This document shows, one piece after another, positions 60,795 through 64,000 of a stretch of DNA of 64,000 nt. Within the stretch, counting starts at the first letter, position 1; each line of letters opens with the position of its first letter. The notes beneath the pieces were generated by a model. That model worked only from the letters and a program-made list of their open reading frames with translations. It searched no databases and was not told the DNA's origin. The DNA is taken from the NCBI RefSeq assembly GCF_057098645.1, contig NZ_CM169472.1. One strand, written 5' to 3'. A program made the translations under genes and the position numbers.

Positions 60795-63700
60795 GTGAAA
60801 ACTCCAGTTAACCCACTTTTGCAATGGCTTAATATGTTTTTTAGTCGCCGTTCATTATCCGGAGCTGATGGACGGGCGTTATATGCTTACCGTTGTACTG
60901 ATACAGAGTACGAAAGTTTGGCAGAACTACTGCGTACATATGCCCCCCGTAGTTATCCAAGAACGATATTCATTTCCTATAGCGATGTTCTATTTAGCAT
61001 ATATGCCGCAGAGTTTATCCGCCGGACTCATACGGTCGGACACCCTAAATGGGACACAATTTTAGATTCTATTAACTGGAAAGTTCCGTATGTTCATCGA
61101 CAGAAGCTGGTTAATGATGGCATTCGCTACTGGAAAAGAAAGATAAGAAACCTGGGACAAGCTTCGGGTTATCTGCATACACTGGCTTGTGAAGGTGGTT
61201 TGCCTATCCGCATGATTGAAAATGAGAGCGGTTATTTGATTACCTATTTCAGAAGGATATATCAGGCGCTTCGTGGGCAATCATCTCAATATCCTGCCGC
61301 TAAAATTGCACAAGAATTAGGCGATACGATTCCTGTCACAATGCAAAACGAACTGGTCTATGAAATAGCCGGTGAATTCTGCGAGACTCTCTGCCGATTA
61401 CTTAGTGAGCATCCTCCTCATAGCAGTGATCCCGTTTCTGCATTACGTAAGCTCTCTCCAGACTGGCATCTTCAACTTCCACTCGTTCTCCCCGAAGCGA
61501 ATGCTGCAGAGATTGTAAGGCGATTACTTTCTCAATCTTCTGAAATACGCAGTGCAAGTAGTCTTCAGGTTGAAAGAATCTGGGTCGATGTTGATGACAG
61601 TTGGTATTGCGATGCCCGGTTCCGATTCCCGGCCACAATGCGTACAGAACAGTTAACCTCTTTGTTTGAATGCCATATTCAGCCGGAGCAGACCCGACTC
61701 ATCATTTCAGGAAAATGGAAAAATGGCGGGGCAAGGTTGGCAATGCTAAGCCGTTATGAGCAGCAAGATTGGCGGGTCGAGTTATTACCTATTGCGATGC
61801 AAAAACTCTCTGGTGCAGATGCAATGGCCGAAATCTCATTGTCGCTTCATGAAGGTCCAATTCTGTTAGGTCACACAATTCCAAAAGGCGGTTATGAACT
61901 TACTGAAGAACTTCCCTGGGTTTTTGAAGCGATGAATGAGAGTGAATCGCAGCTAAAACTTGTTGGTATGGGGTCTGTGAGTTCCAGGCTAAATGCTCTG
62001 TTTATTTCGCTACCGAAAAATAGCCATTTAGATATTAGTGGAGAAGGTGAGTTTGATATCCCAAGGTTGCTGAAAAACAGTGAACGCAGCTTAACTAAAA
62101 TAAGTGGAGTATTTAGCGTTGTTTTACATGATGGTGCTGTTTGTACAATTCGCACCCAGCAACTTTATGATTCTGCGATTGAATATTATATTAAATCGAC
62201 AGAAGTTGAACTGGTTAAATCGGATTATCCTGTCCATCGAGCCTGGCCGAAGATCGGTTGGAAAAAGGATCTGCAATATGGCATTGTACCGGAGAAAGAA
62301 CTTTTTTGGCGTTCCATTCGTTCAGGTAATAATGCCTGGTATTCTGTCGCATCAGAAATGCCAAAAGGACAGATAGAAGTCCGGCGAATAGTTAATGATG
62401 AGGTTTTATTTAGCGGTAAAGTTGTAGTTTTACCAGCAGACTTCGATATTAATATTATACCTGAGAGTGCTCAGCAAGGCATTATTATGCTTTCTGGTAT
62501 AACGGATACTAGAATTGATAAATATTCAAACAATGAAAAAGTAACACTTAAGTCCGATTATTCACAAAACGAGTGTGCTATTTATTATAATTCATCGCTG
62601 ATGCTGGAAAATACCGTTGATTTACGGGTCTCCTGGAAAGATGGTTCTAATCTTAAACTATTATTACCTAAGCCGGTTAGCGGTGGCCGATTTGTAACTA
62701 ATGATGGTTCTGTTCATTTTGATGGTGTGGCATCTATAGCACATTTGCATGGAATAGATGCTGAGTTATTAACCATATCATGTGCTGGAAGAGGATATCT
62801 TAATATCGAGTTATTGGATGAAAATCCAGTAGCTGAAAAATTCCGCTATTTACATGCCGACCTTCCTCTTTTATCAGGACGCAATGACAAATTACAACAA
62901 ATTTCACTTTATGAGAACTATAATTTGCTAAATGCTATGCTGGCATGTGCATGGAACAGCAATAGTACATTATGTGTTGATTTTTACTCTGACAGATTTG
63001 GAAAGGATAAAGCAACACTCAATATTAAACGCTACGATGGTAGTTTTATTGAACACGATCAAGGGTTACTGGTTGATATAAAAAATTCTGTTGTTTTTCC
63101 TGCAAATAGAATAGACGAACTGGTTGTTGATGCTATTTCTCTTAAGAATCCTGGCTTACACATATCATTGTTAAAAAAAGATGAGTTTGCTTATGATCTT
63201 TCAGCTCTGAATGTTCAGGATAGTCCATGGTTAATTGTGGGAAAACTTGATGGTACAGCTCGCATTGCACCAGTAATTAAATGGATGCTACCTGTATTGC
63301 AGACAAATGATTTATTACTAAATGCTCTATGCGAAGCAGACCCAGAACAGCGCAAAAAAAATTTTAATGAGCTAATTTTTGAAATAGATAACAACCCATT
63401 GCAAAATTATTGCTGTTTATTAACAGAGTATATTAAGAAATACAAAATGAATAATGGCTTATCCTTGCTGGATCTGGACTTGTTCAGAGGTATTTCGAGT
63501 AATTACCGCGTGGTTGTTCAATTGTTAATATCATCATGTCTTTCTGGTGATAGCGATACGATTTATGATATACAGGAAGAATTACCCTTTTCATGGGGAT
63601 GGATTCCCGTTTCAATCTGGAAAGATGTTTTCCAAAAATGTTGGACTTATCTGGAGAAACAGATTAACGATAAAACATTAGCATTACATATATTGCAACC

Positions 63701-64000
63701 CTTTATTGCTTTTATGAACCATCGTGCACATATCGATCGTCGGCTGGCTCCGATTGCGAATATGTTACTTACATATAGTGAGAGCCTACCAACCGGTTGT
63801 GATGTATTGCCAACTGTTAGTCGTGAGCAGTTTAATGAAGCTAAACAGATGCTATTAAGGAACCCCGACAGCTTTGGGCGTATCAGTATCTTCCCTAAAG
63901 AACTTTGGTCTAGTGCTATTACTCCAGAGTTAAAATCTGTTTTTAATAAGCTTTGGATTGAAGATAAATATCACTCACGGCTTGAAAAACGTTTTAATTT
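60795..64000 (+). CDS. very large AT-rich hypothetical protein, over 1060 codons, continues beyond the window end
   Basis: Uninterrupted reading frame from the in-frame stop at 60717 to the window end; GTG start at 60795 with SD aaggcagg; no recognisable NTPase motifs. Confidence 0.55.
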   Translation, partial: MKTPVNPLLQWLNMFFSRRSLSGADGRALYAYRCTDTEYESLAELLRTYAPRSYPRTIFISYSDVLFSIYAAEFIRRTHTVGHPKWDTILDSINWKVPYVHRQKLVNDGIRYWKRKIRNLGQASGYLHTLACEGGLPIRMIENESGYLITYFRRIYQALRGQSSQYPAAKIAQELGDTIPVTMQNELVYEIAGEFCETLCRLLSEHPPHSSDPVSALRKLSPDWHLQLPLVLPEANAAEIVRRLLSQSSEIRSASSLQVERIWVDVDDSWYCDARFRFPATMRTEQLTSLFECHIQPEQTRLIISGKWKNGGARLAMLSRYEQQDWRVELLPIAMQKLSGADAMAEISLSLHEGPILLGHTIPKGGYELTEELPWVFEAMNESESQLKLVGMGSVSSRLNALFISLPKNSHLDISGEGEFDIPRLLKNSERSLTKISGVFSVVLHDGAVCTIRTQQLYDSAIEYYIKSTEVELVKSDYPVHRAWPKIGWKKDLQYGIVPEKELFWRSIRSGNNAWYSVASEMPKGQIEVRRIVNDEVLFSGKVVVLPADFDINIIPESAQQGIIMLSGITDTRIDKYSNNEKVTLKSDYSQNECAIYYNSSLMLENTVDLRVSWKDGSNLKLLLPKPVSGGRFVTNDGSVHFDGVASIAHLHGIDAELLTISCAGRGYLNIELLDENPVAEKFRYLHADLPLLSGRNDKLQQISLYENYNLLNAMLACAWNSNSTLCVDFYSDRFGKDKATLNIKRYDGSFIEHDQGLLVDIKNSVVFPANRIDELVVDAISLKNPGLHISLLKKDEFAYDLSALNVQDSPWLIVGKLDGTARIAPVIKWMLPVLQTNDLLLNALCEADPEQRKKNFNELIFEIDNNPLQNYCCLLTEYIKKYKMNNGLSLLDLDLFRGISSNYRVVVQLLISSCLSGDSDTIYDIQEELPFSWGWIPVSIWKDVFQKCWTYLEKQINDKTLALHILQPFIAFMNHRAHIDRRLAPIANMLLTYSESLPTGCDVLPTVSREQFNEAKQMLLRNPDSFGRISIFPKELWSSAITPELKSVFNKLWIEDKYHSRLEKRFN

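Follow-up and report, generated by a model that had tools for sequence, protein, structure and literature searches.

Druantia was reportedly first named by Doron et al. in Science in 2018. Types I (DruABCDE) and II (DruMFGE) of this defence system have a DruE helicase homologous to that of type III, but none of their accessory proteins is related to DruH, the partner of DruE in type III. The DruE proteins also differ, that of type III having tandem PLD-like domains and those of types I and II a single nuclease-like domain that is not of the PLD kind. Here we analyse a stretch of 64,000 nucleotides from NCBI RefSeq assembly GCF_057098645.1, contig NZ_CM169472.1 (hereafter the window), and in particular an open reading frame (ORF) on its plus strand that runs from 60789 to 64000, where the window edge truncates it, and that is druH of Druantia type III.

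Background

In Druantia III both druH and druE are required for defence, as seen with deletions in strain EDL933 and with heterologous E. coli and P. aeruginosa systems. The defence provided by the E. coli system is direct and non-abortive. DruE loads at junctions of single-stranded DNA (ssDNA) and double-stranded DNA (dsDNA) and unwinds in the 3'-to-5' direction, and according to two studies it also degrades DNA. In the literature zorABE and druHE are divergently transcribed, and this arrangement of Zorya II and Druantia III is O-island 172 (OI-172) of enterohaemorrhagic E. coli (EHEC), for which knockouts (EDL933 deletion mutants) have been published. Wu et al. (bioRxiv 10.1101/2022.08.21.504612) reported that 2151 of the 2518 Zorya II instances in E. 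coli are found together with Druantia III, the two systems being co-localised and synergistic. Druantia III defends without Zorya, and vice versa.

Five papers of 2026 deal with how Druantia III works, and the biochemical role of DruH is disputed: it has been described as a 3'-5' exonuclease, as an ATP-gated ssDNA binder and as a protein sensor. Working on P. aeruginosa DruH (PaDruH), Loeff, Chanez and Jinek (2026 preprint; Loeff et al. below) found a Mg-dependent 3'-5' ssDNA exonuclease with defence-essential residues R22, K28 and E64 in an N-terminal cleft, and a 1:1 DruE-DruH complex that depends on forked DNA and in which DruH's C-terminal domain opens an autoinhibited DruE. Hu et al. found that E. 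coli DruH has a single nucleobase pocket for which ssDNA competes with ATP, at the interface of the fifth immunoglobulin-like domain (Ig5) and the C-terminal domain; the substitutions R1031A, H1062A and R1064A lose defence, and an ATP-gated ssDNA clamp was proposed. The two proteins share the partner DruE and a layout of an N-terminal helical domain, six Ig-like domains and, at the C-terminus, another helical domain. PaDruH belongs to a distant clade (distant homologues in the alignment described below are about 20-25% identical), and whereas exonuclease activity and a DNA-dependent 1:1 complex have been reported for it, two groups saw no stable complex of E. coli DruH with DruE and one reported ssDNA binding only.

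Identification of the open reading frame as druH

A first-pass annotation of the window, made from its letters alone, had described a giant, continuous and AT-rich open frame free of recognisable motifs, divergent from a Zorya-like operon. The frame is real. Translation of the plus strand from 60795 to 64000 gives 1068 codons with zero stops up to the window edge, an outcome expected by chance with a probability of about 1e-32 (GC content 39.6%, stop probability 0.066 per codon). The region has a GC content of 0.36-0.455, whereas the window's core-genome part has about 0.50-0.57. Little of the gene is missing: in near-identical genomes druH ends at the window equivalent of 64148, so that the protein has 1119 amino acids in total and extends 49 codons past the window edge.

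The last in-frame stop 5' of the gene is at 60717. Its in-frame starts include TTG at 60789, which is the choice of RefSeq, and two codons 3' of it a GTG (60795-60797, plus strand), to which the PADLOC profile aligns with its position 1 and where the construct deposited in the Protein Data Bank (PDB) has Met. A Shine-Dalgarno-like, AGG-rich stretch occupies 60777-60788, with an AGG at 60786-60788 placed 6 nt 5' of the GTG.

The portion of the gene in the window (60789-64000) encodes residues 1-1070 of the 1119 residues of DruH of Druantia type III, a member of the YjiT or STY4851/ECs_5259 family. It matches the PADLOC model DruH3 (PDLC00041) with 2406 bits, aligning positions 14-1068 of a profile of 1117, and the full gene from a near-identical genome scores 2555 bits over positions 1-1117 of the same profile. 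The NCBIfam model NF038336 (YjiT_fam, STY4851/ECs_5259 family protein) is matched with 952 bits against a cutoff of 150. All 1070 residues are the same as those of RefSeq protein WP_000960581.1 (1119 aa) of E. coli O157:H7 TR01, and at the DNA level 60500-64000 differs from TR01 by a single nucleotide, at 60833, which is synonymous. The window protein is likewise identical over residues 5-1070 to chain A of PDB entry 9TUD, named "DruH" (1119 residues), and it has each of the nine published pocket residues (Y670, N672, H689, Y733, D735, R1031, H1062, R1064 and K1067) where the published numbering puts it. Residues 3-4 of 9TUD are M-E where the genome has V (GTG) and K at 60795-60800, which suggests that the depositors took the GTG at 60795 as the start codon; the K4E difference stems either from strain variation or from cloning.

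We conclude, with a probability of roughly 0.85 for this reading as a whole, including the mechanism proposed for DruH below, that the ORF is druH and opens a two-gene Druantia type III operon, druH-druE, that stands back-to-back with a type II Zorya system. There is no substantial difference from the E. coli locus whose DruH has been structurally solved: the 1070 residues, the divergent Zorya II operon and, in near-identical genomes, the druE gene on the 3' side are all the same. The gene, the system, the island, the synergy with Zorya II and the atomic structure are all published and thus already known. A further relative by the curated model NF038336 is YjiT of E. coli K-12, which belongs to the same family and is found at a different chromosomal locus; Wu et al. 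place K-12 yjiT, too, in a variable locus rich in restriction systems, known as the immigration control region.

The suggestion that the ORF could be the large, motif-poor first gene of an undescribed defence system therefore stands in part. The ORF does begin a system that is distinct from Zorya and continues past the window edge, but that system is the published Druantia III. What had spoken for novelty was the setting in a defence island and the lack of classical motifs or of a match in the copy of Pfam-A searched. These observations were borne out: regular expressions for Walker A/B, HNH and PD-(D/E)xK gave nothing meaningful in DruH, a Pfam-A scan of the full protein had a best E value of 0.13, which is not significant, a PHROGs scan had no match, and neither motif nor fold places DruH in the Walker NTPase, HNH, PD-(D/E)xK or PLD superfamilies. 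However, the very strong matches to the DruH and YjiT models, the identity to a solved structure called "DruH", the publication of the locus as OI-172 and the existence of the newer Pfam families PF27205 and PF27201 (accessions without names, precomputed on every DruH homologue) make an undescribed system extremely unlikely. For calibration, a motif-free, AT-rich ORF beside a defence operon was rightly flagged as a defence gene, yet the absence of a motif seen by eye does not mean that a gene is undescribed.

The large size and the central Ig-like or fibronectin type III (Fn3)-like domains might also bring to mind a housekeeping protein or a secreted adhesin or toxin. We give this reading almost no credence. 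The N-terminus (MLVKTPVNPLLQWLNMFFSRRS...) is without a signal-peptide-like hydrophobic stretch, no adhesin, toxin or housekeeping family was matched in NCBIfam or Pfam-A, and the protein is soluble and cytoplasmic when purified and binds DNA and ATP; furthermore, knockouts alter phage sensitivity. Nor is the frame interrupted anywhere over the residues encoded in the window.

The druE partner and distribution of the locus

In TR01 the last base of the druH stop codon TGA is the first base of the druE start codon ATG (TGATG, an overlap of 1 nt). Such an overlap implies that the two genes are co-transcribed and makes it probable that they are translationally coupled. The ORF of 2104 aa that follows druH in TR01 matches the PADLOC model DruE3 with 2186 bits. 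The downstream DruE protein also matches the DruE1 (575 bits) and DruE2 (361 bits) models, as well as PDB entry 9TU7 and five related entries; it is a helicase of the YprA/MrfA type, and druE a helicase-nuclease gene. The complete genome with the best match to the wider window has the same druH accession and the same druE layout.

The locus is present in 526 of 5426 complete E. coli genomes, and in 510 of these 526 the match spans at least 80% of the query, which also holds the 5' end of zorA2. In E. coli 99-3311 (NZ_CP101310.1) the match to 60500-64000 is split in two by a transposase of the IS3 family with a frameshift pseudoknot, in or beside the zorA2-druH region. Natural disruption of the locus thus happens occasionally.

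In TR01 the region beyond druE holds an intact DrmD-like helicase and a IIG-like methyltransferase of about 1600 aa (24187-31501, locus numbering); in the literature these two genes are armA and armB of ARMADA II. The matching stretch of the genome closest to the window consists of three pseudogene fragments (33062-35376, locus numbering), followed by the next DEAD/DEAH helicase. ARMADA II may thus have decayed in the lineage of the window.

The neighbouring Zorya II operon

The genes divergent from druH are zorA2 (58925-60577), zorB2 (58211-58918) and zorE (57104-58207), an operon on the minus strand (57104-60577) that is supported by NCBIfam equivalog models, by PADLOC (ZorA2, ZorB2 and ZorE2) and by RefSeq. 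The NCBIfam scores exceed their cutoffs in each case (ZorA2, 1140 versus 700 bits; ZorB2, 444 versus 400; ZorE, 696 versus 600). This is a canonical, complete type II Zorya system that is separate from druHE, and the opposite orientation of the two sets of genes agrees with what had been noted for this frame at first sight.

The AT-rich spacer between zorA2 and druH (60578-60788) is presumed to be a back-to-back promoter region. It measures 211 bp between the RefSeq start of zorA2 at 60577 and the TTG at 60789; with the longest zorA ORF (from 60634) and the GTG at 60795 as its limits instead, it shortens to about 160 bp. A scan for promoter-like sigma-70 hexamers returned 4 sites, 2 per strand, versus 1.6 +/- 1.4 in shuffled sequences, which is too weak to assign promoters, and a scan of the spacer for terminators found none. 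The spacer would be compatible with back-to-back promoters. The pair of operons sits on a horizontally acquired, AT-rich defence island.

With such a neighbour it is conceivable that the ORF is a fourth Zorya component expressed from a shared promoter region. It adjoins zorA2 in divergent orientation, the two systems co-occur in most E. coli instances (the 2151 of 2518 mentioned above), and they act in synergy, the literature having ZorE recruitment depend on DruHE. Against this, the Zorya II operon is complete without DruH at the equivalog level, DruH has no match to any Zor model in PADLOC and lies on the strand opposite to zorA2-zorB2-zorE, and each system defends alone. In published phylogenies DruH tracks DruE and not Zorya, and most Druantia III clades have no fixed ZorE partner. 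A Zorya component is therefore very improbable, and druH is better seen as the first gene of a Druantia III operon in its own right.

Domain organization and conservation of DruH

Three parts of the protein can be placed on the window. An N-terminal all-alpha domain (residues 1-256; 60789-61556) carries the motifs D27-G-R29-x-L31-Y32-x-Y34-R35, E75-x-x-R78-R79 and G136-G-L-P139. It is followed by an array of Ig-like or Fn3-like domains (residues 257-748; 61557-63032) whose limits are taken from the published cryo-electron microscopy of the identical protein. The span that holds the nine residues of the nucleobase or ATP pocket, at the interface of Ig5 and the C-terminal domain, covers 62796-63989. 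All three features are on the plus strand.

We aligned 28 DruH homologues with 19-84% identity. Among the 50 columns that are at least 90% conserved, 26 fall within residues 1-256. L31, Y32, Y34, E75 and GGLP136-139 are invariant in the alignment, and R21, D27, G28, R29, R35, R78 and R79 are nearly so; the window protein holds all of the family motifs (DGRxLYxYR, ExxRR and GGLP). The N-terminal domain lacks any classical catalytic motif, and no entry of the PDB is a significant structural neighbour of it. Several distant homologues have their own residues 22 and 28 aligned to R29 and R35 of E. coli DruH. This offset would fit R22 and K28 of PaDruH, mutation of which abolishes defence, but it is a lead only, drawn from the numbering and not from the PaDruH sequence. 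The conserved columns R29, R35 and E75 of E. coli DruH are thus the probable counterparts of the defence-essential cleft residues of PaDruH.

Conservation is far lower in the Ig-like and C-terminal regions than in the N-terminal domain. Such a pattern is expected of a surface that co-evolves with phages, and it lends some support to the view that DruH is a protein-recognising sensor of infection, in which the Ig-like and baseplate J-like scaffold binds a phage baseplate or tail protein and signals to DruE, contacts with DNA being secondary. Fold resemblance to phage baseplate wedge J-like proteins and to Ig-like/Fn3 proteins has been reported for DruH residues 1-676 and for its Ig-like domains. 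[quoted passage not shown] The absence of any PHROGs match to DruH means that a link to baseplate proteins has no support at the sequence level. The conserved columns, for their part, lie mainly in the helical N-terminal domain. We regard a primary role in protein sensing as possible but doubtful.

The pocket residues, in turn, are kept only in the enterobacterial clade, that is, among homologues with at least 48% identity. In homologues at 33-35% identity the pocket positions are replaced (Y670S/R, N672E, Y733S/L, R1031W, H1062S/N and R1064A/P). For these the alignment covers 99% of the length and should be reliable; for the most distant sequences it is uncertain in the C-terminal third. This distribution bears on a further proposal, namely that DruH is a non-catalytic ssDNA clamp on the strands unwound by DruE, kept off by ATP until the local ATP level falls, with the cutting left to other systems, ZorE for example. 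The competition of ssDNA and ATP for one pocket and the loss of defence in the pocket mutants of Hu et al. are what such a clamp would produce. However, since the pocket is not conserved beyond the enterobacterial clade, the clamp cannot be the core function of the family. In addition, two independent groups report nuclease activity of DruH, and Druantia III defends alone, without Zorya. The clamp is therefore rather unlikely as a full account of DruH.

A possible mechanism for DruH

In the mechanism that we favour, DruH would be a DNA-engaging accessory subunit of DruE. It would recognise, and probably trim in the 3'-to-5' direction, the single-stranded 3' ends exposed on intermediates of phage replication and recombination. 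DruH would then dock on DruE through its C-terminal domain and turn the autoinhibited DruE dimer into an active complex that unwinds and degrades DNA. In the enterobacterial clade, cellular ATP may keep the pocket shut until infection, as a clade-specific gate. The ancestral and indispensable activity would most likely be located in the N-terminal helical domain, because the residues that are invariant across the family sit there, and it would probably be a DNA-processing one.

Several points weigh against this interpretation. Hu et al. see ssDNA binding but no nuclease activity of DruH and describe a system without an apparent nuclease module. Wu et al. report a nicking activity that depends on the DruH dimer and favour a role as protein sensor. 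Himpich et al. find no catalytic domain, no stable binding to DruE in vitro and no effect on the helicase activity, and the M. smegmatis system is, according to Li and He, abortive and triggered by a tail protein. The nuclease activity reported for DruH could also come from a contaminant. The putative correspondence of R22, K28 and E64 of PaDruH with R29, R35 and E75 of E. coli DruH depends on numbering offsets. Finally, because the window edge cuts druH, the last 49 codons and druE lie outside the window, and we infer their presence in the source strain from near-identical genomes.

The strong conservation of the N-terminal domain and the restriction of the pocket to one clade bear on the disagreement between four laboratories over DruH. 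One way to accommodate both is that the N-terminal all-alpha domain is a true catalytic 3'-5' ssDNA exonuclease with a new nuclease fold, whereas the ATP/ssDNA pocket is a lineage-specific regulatory addition of the enterobacterial clade. We offer this as a tentative idea that may well prove wrong; if true, it would reconcile the conflicting reports of 2026.

Other genes of the window

The defence island is the cargo of a P4-like integrative element, or P4-like satellite, at tRNA-Leu(CAA) (37923-38007). The element includes a P4-type integrase (38160-39446), psu and ogr/delta-like genes (42338-43484, minus strand) and a P4 alpha-type primase (49452-51785). The gap between integrase and psu is filled by a type II restriction-modification pair (39912-42021), in which the restriction enzyme occupies 39912-40730 (654 bits with PADLOC REase_II) and the m5C methyltransferase 40768-42021 (minus strand); the closest genome has two different hypothetical genes there. 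An IS21 insertion (45835-48253; istA 45835-47481, istB 47255-48253) lies within the element. Among the complete E. coli genomes in the collection, none matches the window from end to end, and the best covers 87% of 44000-64000; the IS21 insertion probably accounts for most of the missing 13%.

Adjoining zorE is a stand-alone HNH endonuclease that binds phosphorothioate (PT)-DNA (55692-56720, minus strand; NF045808, 438 bits). Its longest ORF has 342 aa, compared with 283-290 aa in RefSeq annotations. Annotations of related genomes show, between this gene and zorE at about 56631-56879, the pseudogene remnant of an N-acetylneuraminate epimerase/mutarotase. Elsewhere in the window, patches of low GC content (0.34-0.36) flank the ornithine carbamoyltransferase gene (23728-24732, minus strand) on either side. 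They hold ORFs of 555 aa (22004-23671, plus strand) and 407 aa (26025-27248, plus strand), neither of which has a PADLOC or NCBIfam match at the thresholds used.

An unannotated ORF of 682 aa (53021-55069, plus strand; GC content about 0.32) is located between the genes of the P4-type primase and of the PT-DNA endonuclease; it has no match in PADLOC, NCBIfam, PHROGs, Pfam-A or the sequences of the PDB. Its family is narrow and enterobacterial, labelled "hypothetical protein" throughout with one "NERD domain" label, and has an invariant motif D481-x12-E494-L-K496. The AlphaFold2 (AF2) model is poor overall (pLDDT 57), but the motif falls in a locally confident alpha-beta-beta-beta-alpha-beta segment. 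A Foldseek search with the model found nothing significant; among the non-significant matches PD-(D/E)xK nucleases recur (McrC, Hjc, HindIII, the Shedu nuclease domain and AF1548). This ORF is less well explained than druH, and the model and the motif make it a candidate for an uncharacterised defence gene of the NERD/PD-(D/E)xK type.

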